From: a virus
Taxonomy: Duplodnaviria; Heunggongvirae; Uroviricota; Caudoviricetes
Length of the DNA: 5,329 nt
Strand: one strand, 5' to 3'
IMG/VR virus record: IMGVR_UViG_2913177423_000004
Part shown: piece by piece, positions 2 through 5,329 of the stretch
Position numbering within the stretch: the first letter of the stretch is position 1
Layout of the letters: every line of letters starts with the position of its first letter
Program-made: the position numbers and the translations under genes
Notes under the pieces: generated by a model
Told to the model about the DNA's origin: nothing
The model's database searches: none
What the model saw: only the letters and a program-made list of their open reading frames with translations

Positions 2-166
2 CCAGTTTTTGTTGACCACTACAACGTTGACCTGGCCGCCAGCGGCGTTGCCTACAAAGAGCGGATGAATATACCGGTAATTGCAGAACAGGTAGCCCGT
101 GAGCAACCGGAGAACTTGCACACCTATTTCATGGAACGGCTACGATACTGGCCGGCGTTGAATTAA
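2..166 (+). CDS. 3' end of an upstream phage gene (partial; start lies outside the window), product unknown
   Basis: Frame-2 reading frame is open from the window edge to TAA at 164..166 (54 sense codons, ...[13 protein letters not shown]). GC-rich third codon positions. Absent from the ORF track because it is truncated. Product not recognised. Confidence 0.4.
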
Positions 167-225
167 TCCACATGATGCGCAAGGGGCAATATCAGCATCC
201 TCAGGGTGATGGATTGTCACCCACA

Positions 226-272
226 GAACAATTTTATCTGCTGACTTTCCACCGTTAACGCGACACAACCTT
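226..272. repeat. Left arm of a long inverted repeat; perfect 32-bp core at 241..272
   Basis: 241..272 (ctgactttccaccgttaacgcgacacaacctt) is the exact reverse complement of 1226..1257. Flanking bases 226..240 also match the reverse complement of 1292..1305 with one T indel. Weaker similarity continues outward to about 205 on the left and 1325 on the right. Confidence 0.85.
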
Positions 273-438
273 AATATGCCACAAAGGTTTTTGTTAACGA
301 GCTGCATCTTTTTCTTTTCTGGGTGATGATTGTTTTATAATAAACAAATAACAACATTTATTCTTGTAAAAGTAATAATATCTCTTTGGTGATCGAATTT
401 ATTGATCGCATTTCAATTAAACAAATAAGGAGTTTTTT

Positions 439-1140
439 ATGCCCAAAATTACCGGTGTTCTAGTGAGCCACCATGTGTTCGATATAAAAAAAGACATGGC
501 TAATGGTTCATTCCCGAAAACATTATTTCCAGGCGCGACATTTCAGATGGTGGTTGACAATGATGTTGTCAATAATAATACGTTGGACTGGAGTGTTGTC
601 ACCAATGCGGGAGACAATTCGCTGACTGTAAATCAGGACGGCGTGGTGTCATTTTCAAATGATATTGATGAAAGTTGCATTGGTAAAACATTTGTTATTT
701 TTGCGAAGGATAAAGCCACAGGGAAAAATGTGTCATCTTATTTAATTAAACCTTATCGCTTCTTTAAACCTCGTACCGCAACGTCGGACAGATTTTACGA
801 TGCATTGTTTTGGATTGAGGATAAAAAAGGGACTGTCCCGGCACGACGCGATATCAATAATGTCCCTTTCGATGAACTGACGGGAGAAATGTTTCATGAT
901 GTAAAACGTGAAGTGAATTCCGGGCTTTTTCAGGAATGGGGATTTTTACTGTTTAGTGGGTGGACTAATCCTGTACGTGGTGATATTGGTAGTCTCGAAT
1001 CAGAAATTTTCACTTTAGAAAATGACAGTATATTTATATCGACAGTCAACTCCCTCCCATACTCCAGAGATCTCCATGATGATATGGACTCCCAGTCTGC
1101 ACAGGCTGTAGCGTTTTACGGGGAATCTGTTGTTTCCTGA
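439..1140 (+). CDS. Hypothetical protein, 233 aa, AT-rich orphan gene; possible beta-rich Ig-like N-terminal region; function unknown
   Basis: ATG at 439 is preceded by a strong Shine-Dalgarno (taaggag at 426..432, 6-nt spacer). Uninterrupted 233-codon frame ending TGA at 1138..1140. Composition is visibly more AT-rich than int or ybhC. No signal peptide and no catalytic motif that I can name. Residues ~30-100 (ATFQMVVDNDVV...LDWSVVTNAGDNSLTVNQDGVVSF...) have the alternating pattern of a bacterial Ig-like domain, but this is an impression, not a match. Confidence 0.8.
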   Translation: MPKITGVLVSHHVFDIKKDMANGSFPKTLFPGATFQMVVDNDVVNNNTLDWSVVTNAGDNSLTVNQDGVVSFSNDIDESCIGKTFVIFAKDKATGKNVSSYLIKPYRFFKPRTATSDRFYDALFWIEDKKGTVPARRDINNVPFDELTGEMFHDVKREVNSGLFQEWGFLLFSGWTNPVRGDIGSLESEIFTLENDSIFISTVNSLPYSRDLHDDMDSQSAQAVAFYGESVVS

Positions 1141-1162
1141 TGTTTTAATGAGTTTTTAATAG

Positions 1163-1193
1163 TCTCCGTCTTTTTAATTTAAAGAGACGGAGA
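1163..1193. terminator. Palindromic stem-loop 23 bp after the 233-aa ORF; possible terminator or protein/RNase site
   Basis: tctccgtcttttt (1163..1175) pairs with aaagagacggaga (1181..1193): 13 bp including one G-U pair, loop aattt. It is not followed by a clean T-tract on either strand, so it is not a canonical intrinsic terminator. Confidence 0.35.
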
Positions 1194-1225
1194 TTATCGG
1201 CTCTGCAACGTGAAGCTCAGGAACA

Positions 1226-1305
1226 AAGGTTGTGTCGCGTTAACGGTGGAAAGTCAGCAAAAGTTGTATTGCTGGCTTTTCATGCAGCCAGCAGATAAAT
1301 TGTTC
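1226..1305. repeat. Right arm of the long inverted repeat; perfect 32-bp core at 1226..1257, then a ~34-bp insertion, then the extended match
   Basis: 1226..1257 is the exact reverse complement of 241..272. 1258..1291 has no counterpart on the left and contains its own small hairpin (gctggc ... gccagc). 1292..1305 resumes the match to 226..240. Confidence 0.85.
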
Positions 1306-1476
1306 CGCGGGTGACAGCCATTACCGCGAAGGCATATTGCAAGGGGCGTTGCTTGTGGTCGATTCCTCACTCACTCCAGTTGATGGTTCGCTGCTTGTAT
1401 GTGCTTATCGCATAAAGAGATATCGGAAGCATCCGCGCCGCTATGATTGTCTTTCTCCTGATGCAGGAAAAGCAGA

Positions 1477-1791
1477 ATGGCTAAATCAGCAGCAGAGCGC
1501 AAAGCCGATCAGAGAGCCAAGCAAGCATCATCCGGTATGCGTAAGCTGGAGCTTGTACTTGATGCTCAGGAAATTGAAATGCTGGAGCGTAACTGTGCCA
1601 CGCGTCGCTTCAGGCGTGCGCCTTACGAGTTTGGTGAGTACATCGCGTTACTGAGCCGCCAGGATGATGCACTTGTGCGCTGGCGTATAAAATCGATCAG
1701 CATAAAACGTTGCGGTAAGTGCGGCGAGAGAGTTCCTGTTAATTCATGCCCGTGTAATGGTGACTCACAATGCTGGGTGACCAAAGGCTGA
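1477..1791 (+). CDS. Hypothetical small protein, 104 aa, charged helical N-terminal part plus C-terminal Cys cluster (putative zinc ribbon); possibly an Ea8.5-like protein
   Basis: ATG at 1477 with AGGA at 1465..1468 (8-nt spacer); stop TGA at 1789..1791. C-terminus RCGKCGERVPVNSCPCNGDSQC has a C-x2-C-x8-C-x-C-x5-C spacing typical of a zinc-binding knuckle. The overlapping ORF 1337..1654 in another frame looks non-protein-like. An alternative start at the internal Met (codon 21, nt 1537) cannot be excluded. The Ea8.5 comparison is from memory of its described homeodomain/zinc-finger fold, not from sequence alignment. Confidence 0.6.
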   Translation: MAKSAAERKADQRAKQASSGMRKLELVLDAQEIEMLERNCATRRFRRAPYEFGEYIALLSRQDDALVRWRIKSISIKRCGKCGERVPVNSCPCNGDSQCWVTKG

Positions 1792-1820
1792 TTCGAATTT
1801 AAGAACTGAAAGAACACCAA

Positions 1821-1841
1821 GCCGCCTGATGGCGGTTTTTT
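1821..1841 (+). terminator. Rho-independent terminator-like hairpin (GC stem + T6)
   Basis: gccgcc tgat ggcgg followed by tttttt (1836..1841), 30 bp downstream of the 104-aa ORF stop. The first in-frame ATG of the next ORF (1829) lies inside this stem-loop, so it is unlikely to be the real start. Confidence 0.6.
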
Positions 1842-1855
1842 ATTGGAGACAAGAA

Positions 1856-2200
1856 ATGTCAGATTTGGCTATGAAGATTTTGAAATGGCAAACGACTGGC
1901 GATGTCGGCATCAGTAGCGCAACTCTTGCCTCAATCGCATGTGGACTGAAAAAGAATATCTATGGTCATCACTTCGGTGCTCCACATGACGCAGCCGATT
2001 TCCGACGATGCGTTGCACTTGTTGAGCAGATTCCAGAAATCAGAGATTCATTCGACAAGGTTGCAAAGCGCGTTCCGGCATTCAAAGGCATCCTCAACGA
2101 ATGGGATTCTCTCGTTGCTCTGTTGAAGTCTGAAATGAAGATACACGGAAACAAAGCACCAGAAACTTACAGAAGAATTAGCGAGCTACGCAAGTACTAA
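1856..2200 (+). CDS. Hypothetical protein, 114 aa (MSDLAMKILKWQ...), function unknown
   Basis: ATG at 1856 preceded by GGAG at 1845..1848 (7-nt spacer); stop TAA at 2198..2200. The ORF track starts it at 1829 (123 aa), but that ATG is inside the upstream terminator hairpin. The gene is followed by two hairpins (2206..2224 and 2259..2279). Product not recognised. Confidence 0.7.
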   Translation: MSDLAMKILKWQTTGDVGISSATLASIACGLKKNIYGHHFGAPHDAADFRRCVALVEQIPEIRDSFDKVAKRVPAFKGILNEWDSLVALLKSEMKIHGNKAPETYRRISELRKY

Positions 2201-2258
2201 CCACAGCCTCACACTCGATGAGGCCTGTTCATTTCTCAAGATATCCAGACCTACCATC

Positions 2259-2279
2259 GCCGCATCAATGCGGCTTTTT
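2259..2279 (+). terminator. Rho-independent terminator-like hairpin (stem + T5) immediately upstream of the pI / xis region
   Basis: gccgca tcaa tgcggc followed by ttttt (2275..2279). A second hairpin (gcctca cactcga tgaggc, 2206..2224) sits directly after the stop codon of the 114-aa gene. Confidence 0.55.
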
Positions 2280-2280
2280 C

Positions 2281-2294
2281 TTGCGTGTAATTGC
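2281..2294 (+). promoter_or_regulatory. cII-binding box (TTGC-N6-TTGC) of the int promoter pI
   Basis: ttgc gtgtaa ttgc at 2281..2294, immediately upstream of and overlapping the xis translation initiation region. This matches the established arrangement of lambda pI, where the cII-activated promoter overlaps the start of xis so that the transcript encodes Int but not Xis. Confidence 0.65.
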
Positions 2295-2306
2295 GGAGAC
2301 TTTGCG

Positions 2307-2525
2307 ATGTACTTGACACTTCAGGAGTGGAACGCACGCCAGCGACGCCCAAGAAGCCTTGAAACAGTTCGTCGATGGGTACGCGAGTGCAGGATATTCC
2401 CTCCTCCGGTTAAAGATGGAAGAGAGTATCTGTTCCACGAATCAGCGGTAAAGGTTGACTTAAATCGACCAGTAACAGGTAGCCTTTTGAAGAGGATCAA
2501 AAATGGGAAGAAGGCGAAGTCATGA
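2307..2525 (+). CDS. xis: Excisionase Xis (lambda-type), 72 aa
   Basis: Protein MYLTLQEWNARQRRPRSLETVRRWVRECRIFPPPVKDGREYLFHESAVKVDLNRPVTGSLLKRIKNGKKAKS matches lambda Xis as I recall it. GGAG at 2295..2298 precedes the ATG at 2307. The ORF-track start at 2268 lies inside the upstream terminator hairpin and is rejected. The 3' end overlaps the int start by 23 bp, as in lambda. Confidence 0.95.
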   Translation: MYLTLQEWNARQRRPRSLETVRRWVRECRIFPPPVKDGREYLFHESAVKVDLNRPVTGSLLKRIKNGKKAKS

Positions 2526-3573
2526 GCGCCGGGATTTACCCCCTAATCTTTATATAAGAAACAATGGATATTACTGCTACAGGGACCCAAGGACGGGTAA
2601 AGAGTTTGGATTAGGCCGAGACAGGAGGATAGCAATCACTGAAGCTATACAGGCCAACATTGAGTTATTTTCAGGACACAAGCACAAGCCTCTGACAGCG
2701 AGAATCAACAGTGATAATTCTGTTACGTTACATTCATGGCTTGATCGCTACGAAAAAATCCTCGCCAGCAGAGGAATCAAGCAGAAGACACTCATAAATT
2801 ACATGAGCAAAATTAAAGCAATAAGGAGGGGTCTGCCTGATGCTCCACTTGAAGACATCACCACAAAAGAAATTGCGGCAATGCTCAATGGATACATAGA
2901 CGAGGGCAAGGCGGCGTCAGCCAAGTTAATCAGATCAACACTGAGCGATGCATTCCGAGAGGCAATAGCTGAAGGCCATATAACAACAAACCCGGTCGCT
3001 GCCACTCGCGCAGCAAAATCAGAGGTAAGGAGATCAAGACTTACGGCTGACGAATACCTGAAAATTTATCAAGCAGCAGAATCATCACCATGTTGGCTCA
3101 GACTTGCAATGGAACTGGCTGTTGTTACCGGGCAGCGAGTTGGTGATTTATGCGAAATGAAGTGGTCTGATATCGTAGATGGATATCTTTATGTCGAGCA
3201 AAGCAAAACAGGCGTAAAAATTGCCATCCCTACAACATTGCATGTTGATGCTCTCGGGATATCAATGAAGGAAACACTTGATAAATGCAAAGAGATTCTT
3301 GGCGGAGAAACCATAATTGCATCTACTCGTCGTGAACCGCTTTCATCCGGCACAGTATCAAGGTATTTTATGCGCGCACGAAAAGCATCAGGTCTTTCCT
3401 TCGAAGGGGATCCGCCAACCTTTCACGAGTTGCGCAGTTTGTCTGCAAGACTCTATGAGAAGCAGATAAGCGATAAATTTGCTCAACATCTTCTCGGGCA
3501 TAAGTCGGACACCATGGCATCACAGTATCGTGATGACAGAGGCAGGGAGTGGGACAAAATTGAAATCAAATAA
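2503..3573 (+). CDS. int: Tyrosine site-specific integrase Int (lambda-type), 356 aa
   Basis: Protein MGRRRSHERRDLPPNLYIRNNGYYCYRDPRTGKEFGLGRD...HLLGHKSDTMASQYRDDRGREWDKIEIK matches lambda Int in length and sequence as far as I can recall, including the C-terminal catalytic region (R...HxxR...Y). GAGG at 2492..2495 precedes the ATG at 2503. Confidence 0.97.
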   Translation: MGRRRSHERRDLPPNLYIRNNGYYCYRDPRTGKEFGLGRDRRIAITEAIQANIELFSGHKHKPLTARINSDNSVTLHSWLDRYEKILASRGIKQKTLINYMSKIKAIRRGLPDAPLEDITTKEIAAMLNGYIDEGKAASAKLIRSTLSDAFREAIAEGHITTNPVAATRAAKSEVRRSRLTADEYLKIYQAAESSPCWLRLAMELAVVTGQRVGDLCEMKWSDIVDGYLYVEQSKTGVKIAIPTTLHVDALGISMKETLDKCKEILGGETIIASTRREPLSSGTVSRYFMRARKASGLSFEGDPPTFHELRSLSARLYEKQISDKFAQHLLGHKSDTMASQYRDDRGREWDKIEIK

Positions 3574-3608: not shown

Positions 3609-3621
3609 CAACAAATTGATA
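3609..3621 (-). promoter_or_regulatory. IHF binding site H' of the P' arm
   Basis: Reverse complement TATCAATTTGTTG fits the IHF consensus WATCAANNNNTTR and lies between the arm-type sites and the core, as in lambda attP. Confidence 0.7.
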
Positions 3622-3646
3622 AGCAATGCTTTTTTATAATGCCAAC

Positions 3647-3661
3647 TTAGTATAAAAAAGC
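3647..3661 (-). other. att common core (15 bp) of attL, the phage/host junction
   Basis: ttagtataaaaaagc is the reverse complement of the lambda core GCTTTTTTATACTAA. It is preceded by gccaac (reverse complement of the P' start GTTGGC) and followed by aggcttcaacg (reverse complement of the attB B-arm CGTTGAAGCCT). Confidence 0.9.
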
Positions 3662-3708
3662 AGGCTTCAACGGATTCATTTTTTCCATTTTAAAGCCCGG
3701 AGCAACCT

Positions 3709-4992
3709 GTGAACACATTTTCAGTTTCCCGTCTGGCGCTGGCACTGGCTTTTGGCGTGACGCTGACCGCCTGTAGCTCAACACCGCCCGATCAACGTCC
3801 TTCTGATCAAACCGCGCCTGGTACCTCTTCTCGCCCGATTCTGTCGGCAAAAGAAGCGCAGAATTTCGATGCTCAACACTATTTTGCATCCCTGACACCA
3901 GGTGCTGCAGCGTGGAATCCTTCCCCGATTACCCTGCCTGCGCAACCTGACTTTGTTGTCGGCCCGGCGGGTACCCAAGGTGTAACGCATACCACGATTC
4001 AGGCAGCGGTGGATGCGGCAATTATCAAGCGTACCAACAAGCGCCAGTATATTGCCGTGATGCCTGGTGAGTATGAAGGCACGGTCTATGTCCCTGCCGC
4101 TCCGGGTGGAATTACTCTGTACGGTACAGGTGAAAAACCGATTGATGTGAAGATTGGGCTTTCCCTTGATGGGAGCATGAGCCCTGCCGACTGGCGTCAC
4201 GACGTCAACCCGCGCGGCAAATATATGCCAGGTAAACCAGCGTGGTACATGTACGATAGCTGCCAGAGCAAACGCAGCGACAGTATTGGCGTGCTCTGTT
4301 CTGCGGTTTTCTGGTCACAAAACAATGGCCTGCAACTGCAAAACCTGACCATCGAAAACACGCTGGGCGATAGCGTAGATGCGGGTAACCATCCGGCGGT
4401 GGCACTGCGTACTGATGGCGACAAAGTGCAGATCAATAACGTCAACATTCTCGGTCGTCAGAACACCTTCTTTGTCACCAACAGTGGTGTGCAAAACCGT
4501 CTGGAAACCAATCGTCAACCGCGTACTCTGGTGACGAATAGCTATATTGAAGGGGATGTGGATATCGTTTCTGGTCGCGGCGCGGTGGTGTTCGATAATA
4601 CCGAATTCCGCGTGGTGAACTCCCGTACTCAGCAAGAAGCGTATGTGTTTGCACCGGCTACGCTGTCTAACATCTATTACGGTTTCCTCGCCGTAAACAG
4701 CCGTTTCAATGCTTCCGGTGATGGCGTGGCGCAACTGGGCCGCTCGCTGGATGTTGATGCCAATACCAACGGTCAGGTGGTGATCCGTGATAGCGCCATC
4801 AACGAAGGTTTTAACACGGCTAAACCGTGGGCCGATGCGGTGATTTCCAATCGTCCATTTGCGGGTAATACCGGCAGCGTTGACGATAGCGACGAAGTAC
4901 AGCGCAATCTGAATGACACTAACTACAACCGCATGTGGGAATACAATAACCGCGGCGTGGGTAGCAAAGTGGTTGCAGAAGCGAAGAAGTAA
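3709..4992 (+). CDS. ybhC: Outer-membrane lipoprotein YbhC (pectinesterase-family fold, putative acyl-CoA thioesterase), 427 aa
   Basis: GTG start at 3709 with GGAG at 3699..3702. N-terminus MNTFSVSRLALALAFGVTLTAC has a lipoprotein signal peptide and lipobox (LTAC). Length and sequence match E. coli YbhC as I recall it. It is the host gene adjacent to the lambda attachment site on the gal side. Confidence 0.93.
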   Translation: MNTFSVSRLALALAFGVTLTACSSTPPDQRPSDQTAPGTSSRPILSAKEAQNFDAQHYFASLTPGAAAWNPSPITLPAQPDFVVGPAGTQGVTHTTIQAAVDAAIIKRTNKRQYIAVMPGEYEGTVYVPAAPGGITLYGTGEKPIDVKIGLSLDGSMSPADWRHDVNPRGKYMPGKPAWYMYDSCQSKRSDSIGVLCSAVFWSQNNGLQLQNLTIENTLGDSVDAGNHPAVALRTDGDKVQINNVNILGRQNTFFVTNSGVQNRLETNRQPRTLVTNSYIEGDVDIVSGRGAVVFDNTEFRVVNSRTQQEAYVFAPATLSNIYYGFLAVNSRFNASGDGVAQLGRSLDVDANTNGQVVIRDSAINEGFNTAKPWADAVISNRPFAGNTGSVDDSDEVQRNLNDTNYNRMWEYNNRGVGSKVVAEAKK

Positions 4993-5008
4993 GAGCTATT
5001 AACTATTT

Positions 5009-5285
5009 GCCGGATGCGGTGTAAACGCCTTATCCGGCCTACGGTTCGATGCGATTTGTAGGTCGGATAAGATGCGCAAGCATCGCATCCGACAATAAGT
5101 GCCGAAATGCGGCGTAAACGCCTTATCCGGACTACGGTTCGATGCGATTTGTAGGTCGGATAAGATGCGCAAGCATCGCATCCGACAATAAATGCCGGAT
5201 GCGGCGTGACCGCCTTATCCGGCCTACGGTTCGATGCGATTTGTAGGTCGGATAAGATGCGCAAGCATCGCATCCGACAATAAGT
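5009..5285. repeat. Three tandem REP/BIME units (about 92 bp each), the E. coli repetitive extragenic palindrome cluster downstream of ybhC
   Basis: Units at 5009..5100, 5101..5193 and 5194..5285. Each contains gccggatgcggcgtaaacgccttatccggcctac (the canonical REP palindrome) followed by a second palindromic unit ...gtaggtcggataagatgcgcaagcatcgcatccgac.... A partial fourth copy starts at 5286. The minus-strand ORFs 4923..5273 and 4999..5181 are artefacts of these repeats. Confidence 0.9.
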
Positions 5286-5329
5286 GCCGGATGTGTAGTG
5301 GCATAGTAAATTTGGCCACCTGAATAGAG

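Follow-up and report, generated by a model that had tools for sequence, protein, structure and literature searches.

Organisation of the locus

The window, that is the whole stretch of 5,329 nt that was analysed, contains one AT-rich gene enclosed by two inverted copies of the same sequence, referred to as the left and the right arm, between the genes hot and humD of a lambdoid prophage. The following features were located, with the assignments discussed below:

2..166, plus strand: 3' part of hot (DNA polymerase III theta homologue; Pfam PF06440, E=1.8e-22), truncated and fused to IS sequence
142..270, plus strand: left arm, assigned as an IS6-family right-end remnant (IS positions 163 to 1), with its tip at 270 facing the cassette
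239..272, no strand: left core copy of the repeat, 32 nt of the assigned IS end including the terminal inverted repeat and 2 nt past the tip
271..1227, plus strand: inner segment S, AT-rich, between the IS tips; found in both orientations among related loci
427..432, plus strand: ribosome-binding site AAGGAG, 6 nt upstream of the ATG, read from the sequence
439..1140, plus strand: ORF233, 233 aa, a stand-alone homologue of the C-terminal tip of invasin/intimin
1159..1197, no strand: hairpin downstream of ORF233 with 19-nt arms and no T-tract
1226..1259, no strand: right core copy of the 34-nt perfect repeat
1228..1316, minus strand: right arm, assigned to the same IS6-family element (IS positions 1-90), with the transposase sense on the minus strand and its tip at 1228
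1255..1288, no strand: 34-nt block in the right arm only, assigned as original IS sequence with the transposase stop codon, with CAGCA direct repeats at its borders
1308..1440, plus strand: fragment of a humD pseudogene (UmuD' homologue), in which the IS stub takes the place of the 5' end
1477..3573, plus strand: downstream prophage block, all genes in one orientation
1477-1791, plus strand: orf104, prophage gene downstream
1856-2200, plus strand: orf114, prophage gene downstream
2307-2525, plus strand: xis, prophage gene downstream
2503-3573, plus strand: int, prophage gene downstream

From the gene order downstream, the cassette is placed in the leftward early operon, directly upstream of xis-int. 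An AT-rich 233-aa ORF with its own ribosome-binding site and enclosed by an inverted repeat had been noted in a preliminary description of this DNA, and the same arrangement was seen in the repeat search, the open reading frames and the base composition. The GC content was 0.31-0.42 over positions 201-1200 compared to 0.45-0.55 in the flanks. A repeat search of the window returned a perfect inverted repeat at 239-272 and 1226-1259 (34 nt, 100% complementary, arms 953 nt apart). By our own arithmetic, (5329^2/2)/4^34 = ~5e-14 perfect inverted repeats of 34 nt are expected by chance in 5,329 bases. The perfect core had been described before as 32 bp long (241..272 and 1226..1257) and is two bases longer. 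An imperfect continuation outward, previously drawn to about 205 and 1325, was also found, but true homology between the arms stops near 215 and 1316, with 17/19 and then 8/10 identities in a gapped alignment, and the sequence beyond on the right side is humD. The alignment requires a single 34-nt indel, the position of which (1255-1288, or equally 1260-1293) is ambiguous because CAGCA is repeated at both edges.

Both neighbouring genes are incomplete at the cassette. In blastn comparisons, the similarity to P1-type hot stopped at ~144, with matches in locus L001 and in P1 that span 23-144 only, and hot of L001 runs ~20 codons further. The humD match in L001 and P1 was limited to 1307/1312-1439, and L017 and L018 were aligned as well. 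The truncation of humD at its 3' end is common to other lambdoid prophages. Without the cassette, hot and humD are contiguous in L001 and P1 and no such hairpin is present, nor is it in L017, which has an intact humD 5' end with a LexA box. A search for arms without the insert had been suggested beforehand; these cassette-free hot-humD intervals have neither. The earlier idea of a gene that entered a pre-existing hairpin finds no support here, and the arms themselves are foreign IS sequence that came in with the insert or around it. A megablast search with 150-1400 gave no match in phage genomes and, among complete E. coli genomes, only three humD matches, located on plasmids. ORF233 was also compared with Lxr, which is encoded in the hot-humD gap of P1, and a relationship was rejected (BLASTP, E=0.53).

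Assignment of the arms to the IS6 family

In a distant-mode blastn search, 1226-1316 matched the 3' ends of IS6-family transposase genes in 109 plasmid records with 77-85% identity, and the arms were ~82-84% identical to intact IS copies on Serratia and Yersinia plasmids. One intact IS is located at L029:1501-2310 and encodes a transposase of the IS6 family (NF033587, E=3.5e-81). Its start GGTTGTGTCGCGTTAACGG falls exactly at 1228 and, reverse-complemented, at 270. At these tips, 19 nt are identical to the end of the intact element, whose other end bears a matching terminal repeat. By blastn, the left arm (246-142) was 82% identical to positions 59-163 and the right arm (1228-1316) 84% identical to positions 1-90 of this IS, and pairwise alignment of the left arm gave 114/136 identities. 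The left arm has kept the last 38 transposase codons (142-258), and its reading frame matched the C-terminus of the L029 transposase with 28/35 identities (BLASTP, E=1e-20). The right arm keeps ~20 transposase codons.

IS6-family elements are characterised by GG tips, terminal inverted repeats of 15-20 bp and a conserved TGT motif (PMC7986276). The ends of the arms agree with this description. On this sequence evidence, both arms derive from the right end of an IS6-family insertion sequence and are truncated. They are remnants and not functional ISs, as only C-terminal codons of the DDE transposase are left; an element of ~700-890 bp with both ends was found at none of the loci, each of which has only IS 1-163 and IS 1-90. 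The GG-tipped termini at 270 and 1228 point inward at the enclosed gene, while the IS interior runs outward and the outer IS ends have been lost. The inner flanks of the tips, TTAATATG and TTTGTTCC, are unrelated except for a common TT.

The left arm is devoid of ~34 nt of IS sequence between 243 and 244. As judged by comparison of the copies, the 34-nt block of the right arm is ancestral IS sequence, and it is the left arm that carries a deletion, because intact IS copies have the block, as do the long arms at L009, L011, L013, L015, L022 and L024. Hence, the ~34-bp insertion into the right arm that was reported in the preliminary description is reversed in direction.

ORF233 resembles the tip of invasin

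ORF233 matched the invasin D4 family with 35.4 bits (PF21764, E=1.6e-8, cut-off 27 bits) and invasin in PDB entry 1cwv (E=5e-8), which was also the top match in Foldseek (E=7e-8, rmsd 2.3 over 116 columns). The protein starts at the D4 boundary and, from its second residue, aligns with D4 of invasin (1cwv 303-395). As in D4-D5 of Yersinia invasin and EPEC intimin, the profile matches continue into the next domain, the extreme C-terminus of inverse autotransporters. Remote profile matches were likewise to C-terminal ends of inverse autotransporters and reached positions ~170-205, with a weak match (GLYQEWG / LWGEWG) to invasin D5. ORF233 thus has an Ig-like D4 domain, followed by a putative C-type-lectin-like domain (D5). 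In the AlphaFold model, which was built on an alignment of 14 sequences, only the N-terminal domain was modelled, and pLDDT was below 50 for residues 110-233. Unlike invasin and intimin, ORF233 has no signal peptide, LysM domain, inverse-autotransporter beta-barrel or Big_1 repeats, and PF21764 was its sole Pfam match, whereas its remote relatives bear IAT_beta, Big_1 and Invasin_D3.

The ORF233 family comprises 14 clusters, all from Escherichia, and ORF233 itself gave no match in PADLOC and PHROGs. In one locus, a family member adjoins a gene for a Scabin-like ADP-ribosyltransferase. The cargo may hold the more lasting interest as part of a small Escherichia family of free-standing invasin-tip domains that recurs in prophages and integrative islands. 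Inspection by eye revealed neither a LexA box in S nor a convincing sigma-70 promoter ahead of ORF233. The hairpin at 1159..1197 may be a weak or bidirectional terminator; it is kept in L006, and the terminator scan did not call it.

Orientation of the inner segment and variation of the arms

A 22-mer out of the repeat core served to retrieve related loci. In all 18 related contigs, the stub boundaries (IS 1-163 and IS 1-90) and the junctions with hot and humD were identical, from which it follows that the structure was formed once. At least five different integrases are represented among the prophages that carry the module. One orientation of S was observed in 16 of the 18 contigs. In L009, which has an intact ORF233, S lies on the minus strand between hot and humD flanks that are both on plus. 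In the metagenome contig L006, the hot flank is joined to the downstream end of S, which is probably reversed here as well. The presence of the insert in both orientations, which had been named as a check, was thus confirmed between genomes. From an outgroup-rooted tree we infer at least two flips. This figure rests on a small number of sites, on the partial copy L015 and on the metagenome contig L006, and recombination within S could mimic it.

The arms varied in several modules (CACAG/CACGG/CGCGG, T3/T4, 34-nt block present or absent), which were differently combined with the flanks and the ends of S, and the perfect repeat was 34, 49 or 58 nt long across the different arrangements. These combinations suggest several exchange points, with histories that are not uniquely reconstructable. 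Shuffling of arm variants between loci would be the pattern expected of homologous recombination or gene conversion. A segment that flips between the arms, as envisaged earlier, is therefore retained as a historical inversion (L009 and probably L006, at least two flips), while there was no sign of a programmed or regulatory switch.

Among the related loci and the plasmids searched, neither longer stubs nor an intact IS-S-IS ancestor were found. A tblastn search with ORF233 against plasmids gave no match and thus no intact IS-S-IS donor was identified. Scans of JGI metagenomes yielded no match, and a viral scan with an anchor in the inner segment yielded no further loci.

Proposed origin of the cassette

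In our judgement the cassette is quite probably a decayed insertion between hot and humD of the lambdoid prophage, once bounded by IS6-family elements, that is, a moron with a passive inversion polymorphism. Two inverted copies of one IS6-family element would have flanked ~957 bp of AT-rich foreign DNA with ORF233, with the right ends of both copies (IRR, beside the transposase stop codon) facing inward. The inverted copies may have arisen by intramolecular replicative transposition, which would have inverted the segment; inverted IS6 copies around a segment are known products of this reaction (PMC7986276, PMC4471558). In a later event, which took place once, the copies would have shrunk to 163 and 90 nt and become fused to hot and humD. 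The unit can no longer transpose because the stubs are without transposase and outer ends. The remaining inverted homology of 56-90 nt may occasionally be used by RecA, Red, RecT or Erf-type recombination, and Rad52/Erf-type, RecT and Bet/Exo recombinases are encoded by neighbouring prophage genes. Recombination between the arms would invert S, and gene conversion would keep the inner 34-58 nt identical. ORF233 would take its ribosome-binding site and upstream region along in either orientation and would be an ordinary prophage accessory gene (moron), its product a free-standing version of the tip with which invasin-type adhesins bind their receptors.

Two points of this model deserve mention. 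The trimming of both copies to short pieces of the same end is unexplained within it. Moreover, the abrupt step from a perfect inner repeat to 13-30% outer divergence could reflect selection on the inner repeat as an alternative to conversion alone.

The structure is a familiar kind of genomic scar and not a new device. It shares with IS6/IS26-bounded segments the inverted IS6 right ends with the same end inward and the foreign AT-rich cargo (PMC7986276; PMC4471558). It differs in that the IS copies are stubs of 163 and 90 nt without transposase, outer ends and detectable 8-bp target repeats, that the cargo is not a resistance gene, and that the replicon is the early-left region of a lambdoid prophage and not a plasmid. 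Like the morons bor and lom of lambda, ORF233 stands alone between conserved phage genes, is AT-rich, brings its own ribosome-binding site and is followed by a hairpin, and relatives that share the neighbouring genes do not have it. Unlike in morons, IS stubs still mark the route of entry, and both orientations of the gene exist among strains. As in homologous inversions between inverted IS copies or repeats, S is reversed with unchanged flanks and the arm variants are exchanged as a mosaic, but the homology is very short (56-90 nt, 34-58 of them perfect) and the inversion moves one gene only.

Under the IS-remnant model, an apparently exotic hairpin cassette is given an ordinary and checkable history, in which an IS6-family element delivered or rearranged a foreign prophage gene and then decayed. 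It would be a clean natural example of IS activity seeding morons in lambdoid phages, and inverted homologies of only 56-90 nt would be able to yield a recurrent inversion polymorphism.

Alternative explanations

A function of the arms at the RNA level appears unlikely. Read-through RNA from the leftward early promoter would contain an arm duplex of at least 34 bp, at which RNase III would free a monocistronic ORF233 RNA and reset the 5' end of orf104-xis-int. In the folding check proposed in the preliminary description, the arms pair with each other in the predicted minimum-free-energy and centroid folds of 170-1360, and cleavage of the duplex by RNase III is physically plausible because of the pairing in the former. 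The leftward operon reads along the plus strand, which carries hot, xis and int, and the repeat is kept in either orientation of S. However, two IS stubs give such a duplex automatically, so that no selection need be invoked. The predicted pairing is long-range and spans 953 nt, in contrast to the local, imperfect hairpins of ~20-30 bp at lambda sib and the N-leader. Furthermore, length and sequence of the arms vary freely (short, long, at least three block variants) and no structure-preserving constraint was seen.

Two related readings ascribe a regulatory role to the inversion itself. It is conceivable, at a low probability, that the IS stubs have been recruited into a recombinase-independent flip-flop, powered by Red, RecT, Erf or RecA, which would toggle ORF233 between sense and antisense within the leftward early operon, with the arm duplex gating RNase III processing of read-through RNA. 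The timing of ORF233 synthesis, and possibly the amount of surviving xis-int message, would then depend on orientation. Just as improbable is that the arms are sites of a site-specific recombinase (of the Hin/Gin/Cin/Pin or Fim type, or the IS6 transposase acting in trans), which would flip ORF233 to couple it to or uncouple it from leftward-operon transcription, so that an adhesin-tip-like protein would undergo phase variation. Such a switch would agree with the occurrence of both orientations in nature (at least two flips inferred), with the perfect identity of the innermost 34-58 nt of the arms next to diverged outer parts and with the end of the L006 contig at the outer edge of the perfect repeat, which resembles a mixed-orientation branch. 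The arrangement of inverted repeats around a segment of ~1 kb that is found in both orientations is also that of Hin/hix, Mu G/gix, P1 C/cix, e14 P/pin and fim, and the length of the 34-bp repeat resembles that of the Mu G segment.

Yet no invertase gene was found in the window, where only Int and Xis are encoded besides small phage ORFs, or in ~3 kb around L019-L027. By eye, the IS-derived arms contain no recombinase-type dyad similar to hix, gix or cix, only the 8-bp palindrome CGTTAACG, and no loxP-like or dif-like site was seen. The shuffled arm modules indicate varied exchange points, which fits homologous recombination better than a fixed crossover site, and 16 of the 18 contigs share one orientation. 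The whole gene moves with its translation signals, and not a promoter or alternative C-termini as in site-specific invertible segments; since ORF233 carries its ribosome-binding site and upstream region along, inversion does not part it from a nearby promoter. In part, the core is invariant by ascertainment, as the loci were retrieved with a 22-mer taken from it, and for this reason its invariance does not speak for selection. The passivity of the inversion, for its part, is an argument from absence of evidence, with the inspection for recombinases covering a few kb around each locus.

It is very improbable that the arms delimit, as its terminal inverted repeats, a non-autonomous, MITE-like cassette, which would be mobilised by an IS6 transposase in trans with ORF233 as passenger. 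The arms do contain genuine IS6 terminal inverted repeats, and the spread of the module over prophages with different integrases would suit mobility. But the IS tips at 270 and 1228 face inward, whereas a mobile cassette requires them at its outer boundaries, and no target-site duplication was detectable. The junctions with hot and humD, which lie inside IS sequence, are the same in every locus; the same flanks everywhere imply that the unit moves with its phage neighbourhood and not alone. In addition, the homologue in L003, to which the similarity of S is limited to 327-1146, has no arms. A pseudo-compound transposon of the IS6 family was not found either: compound transposons of this family carry direct IS copies (PMC7986276), and the two copies here are inverted and truncated instead of complete and direct. 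Finally, an inverted duplication of the 5' coding region of humD by a staggered-break inversion can practically be dismissed, for although humD directly follows the right arm and its 5' codons can be loosely aligned with the arm in register, humD homology begins only at ~1308, and 1228-1316 and 270-142 are 82-84% identical to the IS6-family element throughout, the 34-nt block included.

Prophage setting and inverted repeat

The window is identical to the complete 5,329-bp contig RHJQ01000047.1 (assembly GCA_004211995.1, unclassified Escherichia; L027) and contains the integrase end of a lambda-like prophage with the following features:

2307-2525, plus strand: xis
2503-3573, plus strand: int
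near 3621-3665, between int and ybhC: lambda attL-type prophage-host junction (B-O-P')
3709-4992: ybhC, host gene

As xis and int are located on the plus strand, this strand corresponds to the direction of the leftward early operon. The attL-type junction between int and ybhC, in which a repeat search found a 12-nt inverted repeat (TGCTTTTTTATA / TATAAAAAAGCA), places the prophage at the classical lambda attB site. Downstream of ybhC, at 5008-5290, three tandem units of ~93 nt with 92-97% identity and REP-like palindromes form a BIME-type array; a related REP fragment adjoins the integrase gene of L003, a locus from Escherichia sp. E3659. Upstream of xis are orf104 and orf114, both small conserved phage ORFs, and the cassette is situated farther upstream. 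Orf104 (1477-1791) falls into PHROG 536, a family annotated as transcriptional regulator, and is rich in cysteine at its C-terminus. Two clean hairpins with T-tracts resemble terminators, one after orf104 (1819-1838) and one directly before xis (2259-2274).

The long inverted repeat of the preliminary description is real. A repeat search gave a core of 34 nt at 239-272 and 1226-1259, 100% complementary and 953 nt apart, for which the chance expectation in 5.3 kb is ~5e-14 by our own arithmetic. Its imperfect outward continuation extends to 215/1316 with one 34-nt indel in a gapped alignment. The enclosed DNA is AT-rich as described (GC 31-42% versus 45-55% outside), and the 233-codon ORF at 439-1140 (ORF233) has its own RBS, AAGGAG, six bases 5' of the ATG.

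The arms are right ends of an IS6-family element

Used alone in blastn, the right arm (1215-1345) matched the 3' ends of IS6-family transposase genes in 109 plasmid records with 77-85% identity, from Yersinia, Serratia, Klebsiella and other hosts. The arms had been considered to be the 5' end of humD duplicated in inverted orientation, an explanation that was dropped when this search identified IS6 sequence. On a plasmid of Serratia liquefaciens, an intact IS copy (L029:1501-2310) starts with GGTTGTGTCGCGTTAACGG, which occurs exactly at window position 1228 and, reverse-complemented, at 270. Its product of 231 aa is an IS6-family transposase (NF033587, E=3.5e-81) with the C-terminal end ...LAGIELIHMIRKGQYQHPQSDGLSPAEQFYFLAA before the stop codon; the plus-strand reading frame of the left arm matches this C-terminus in 28/35 residues (E=1e-20). 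The family is characterised by GG at the tips and by terminal repeats that are short and conserved (PMC7986276). Alignment and blastn to the L029 element assigned the arms as follows:

142-270: left arm, IS positions 163 to 1
1228-1316: right arm, IS positions 1 to 90

Both arms are right ends, with the tips pointing at the inner segment (S, 271-1227) and the interior running outward until it is cut and fused to hot or humD. TT/AA, two extra paired bases past the tips, are probably due to chance. Overall, the cassette represents an IS6-bounded accessory gene (moron) in a decayed state, whose inversion polymorphism is passive and recurrent; it is a fresh example of an already known kind.

The 34 bp taken for an insertion in the right arm (block 1255-1288) are original IS sequence, since intact IS copies also contain them. 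Together with a four-T run, the block completes the transposase frame (...SPAEQFYLLAA, stop). It is also found in the hot-side arms of the cassette loci L009, L011, L013, L015, L022 and L024, and it was therefore the left arm that lost it, by deletion between two CAGCA repeats. Within the block, a hairpin with an 8-bp stem (TGCTGGCT / AGCCAGCA, 1255-1278) lies over the transposase stop codon. Its sequence varies by locus; the differences from L015 include one compensatory change (G-C to A-T) and one that is not compensatory.

Inversion of the inner segment

Flipping of S between the arms, one of the readings proposed before, occurred at least twice as natural history, but no evidence was found for a programmed or regulatory switch. 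S has the orientation of the window in 16 of 18 contigs. In L009 (IMG/VR UViG 2913128013_000003), the hot and humD flanks are on the plus strand and S is on the minus strand, with ORF233 intact. At only 34 nt, the perfect repeat of L009 would in our judgement not mislead standard short-read assembly. L006 is a metagenome contig of 1,159 bp in which an arm connects the downstream end of S with the reverse-complemented hot flank. On one side, this contig breaks off precisely at the outer limit of a 58-nt perfect repeat (L006:1-58), while its opposite side reaches 90 nt into the hot flank; an assembly-graph branch, to be expected of a sample with both orientations or with two strains, would produce such ends.

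The arms are modular. From the flank toward S, they consist of a flank-specific part, C[A/G]C[A/G]GAACAA, a run of three or four T, the optional 34-nt block (present in at least three sequence variants) and the core. Which modules are joined to either flank and to either end of S differs among loci.

Arm arrangements
Arrangement A: short/long arms, 11 loci, perfect repeat 34 nt
Arrangement B: long/long arms, perfect repeat 49 nt
L009: long/short arms, S reversed
L006: short/short arms, perfect repeat at least 58 nt

When variants in S were polarised against the 79%-identical homologue in L003, L006 clustered with L015, which has the direct orientation, and L009 with arrangements A and B. By parsimony, this grouping requires at least two flips, a number that is based on few sites and partial sequences. 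The pattern fits homologous recombination and gene conversion across an inverted homology of 56-90 nt. A few kb upstream, the cassette prophages have Rad52/Erf-type, RecT or Bet/Exo genes. The inspected DNA contained no invertase gene, and no recombinase-type site was seen by eye. On inversion, the translation signals and upstream region of ORF233 move along with the gene.

It had also been suggested that the arms form a duplex in the read-through transcript that is cleaved by RNase III. This is physically plausible, since the arms pair with each other in the predicted fold of a read-through transcript. Such a duplex comes automatically with two IS stubs, the pairing has to bridge 953 nt and the arms vary freely from locus to locus.

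Origin of the cassette

Insertion of a gene into a pre-existing hairpin is rejected, as the arms are IS6-family right ends. Transposition of IS6 elements is replicative. The compound transposons of the family have direct copies; a segment enclosed by inverted copies results from intramolecular transposition, by which the intervening DNA is inverted (PMC7986276, PMC4471558). Two inward right ends are what this route would yield, and the cassette presumably arose by it. Both IS copies would subsequently have been stripped to 163 and 90 nt. Either two deletions may have removed their outer parts, or a single double illegitimate crossover may have imported the stub-bounded segment as a whole, which would replace the 3' end of hot, the 5' end of humD and the intergenic region between them. 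No intermediate of stub formation was found among related loci and plasmids. At the right junction, 1317-1366 and IS positions 90-150 (L029:1590-1650) share patchy humD/IS similarity (ATATTGC, GCGT..TGTGG, TCGAT.CC), which may reflect microhomology used in illegitimate joining or chance. Because of it, the repeat had seemed to run on to ~1325, which the alignment does not bear out.

The flanking genes are:

ending at 166: hot, as in P1; homologue of DNA polymerase III theta (PF06440, E=1.8e-22)
~1308-1440: middle part of humD, UmuD' homologue of P1-type phages (sequence comparison)

Homology of hot ends at ~144 and the last ~20 codons are missing; humD lacks its first ~35 codons. P1 and P1-like plasmids have the gene order hot, (lxr, P1 only), humD, so the cassette fills the hot-humD interval. 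A C-terminal truncation of humD, fused upstream of orf104, is common to the window (1308-1476) and to two E. coli prophages without cassette (L017:2871-3116 and L018:3001-3111), which makes the humD pseudogene older than, or independent of, the IS event. In L017, the 5' end of humD is retained together with its LexA box.

Distribution

The 18 cassette contigs were collected by scans with one 22-mer of the core and by exact-protein look-ups; as the probe was derived from the core, invariance of the core across arms is uninformative. All 18 come from Escherichia other than mainstream E. coli, among them E. whittamii and Escherichia sp. E1V33, and further members of the protein cluster carry the name E. 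marmotae. Nothing similar to the cassette was detected in 50,697 phage records or JGI metagenome contigs, and 5,426 complete E. coli genomes contained neither cassette nor arms and only three humD matches, on plasmids. At least five different integrases and attachment sites are represented among the prophages that carry the hot-cassette-humD-orf104-orf114 module. Since the stub boundaries are identical in every copy, the structure has a single origin and spread afterwards together with the surrounding phage genes.

ORF233 and its family

ORF233 matches Pfam Invasin_D4 and residues 303-395 of the invasin crystal structure 1cwv (E=5e-8), which is also the sole strong Foldseek match of the confidently predicted N-terminal half of its AlphaFold model. 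It starts exactly at the D4 boundary, and its 233 aa contain no signal peptide, barrel or repeats. No match to any defence-system or PHROG family was obtained. Upstream of the gene, no convincing sigma-70 promoter was seen; the hairpin downstream of it, at 1159-1197, has no T-tract.

When 1.8 billion representative proteins were searched with a profile, 51 relatives were obtained. In the distant ones, which are 700-1,350 aa long and carry IAT_beta, Big_1 and Invasin_D3/D4 domains, the match lies at the very C-terminal end; these proteins are therefore inverse autotransporter adhesins. The close family comprises 14 clusters, all from Escherichia. Lone family genes adjoin a tyrosine integrase at two loci, L032 and L003; in the latter (L003:6001-8034), the homologue is 70% identical and followed after 61 nt by a gene for a 424-aa Scabin-like ADP-ribosyltransferase. 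From this gene arrangement, a functional pairing of the family with a toxin is possible. In the nin region of a different lambdoid prophage, from E. coli (L031:3745-6642), a 46%-identical homologue on the opposite strand adjoins a 508-aa large serine recombinase, which is a second, independent prophage insertion. Another member occupies a chromosomal site (L004, L005). Given these varied locations, the family behaves as a recurrently mobile accessory gene.
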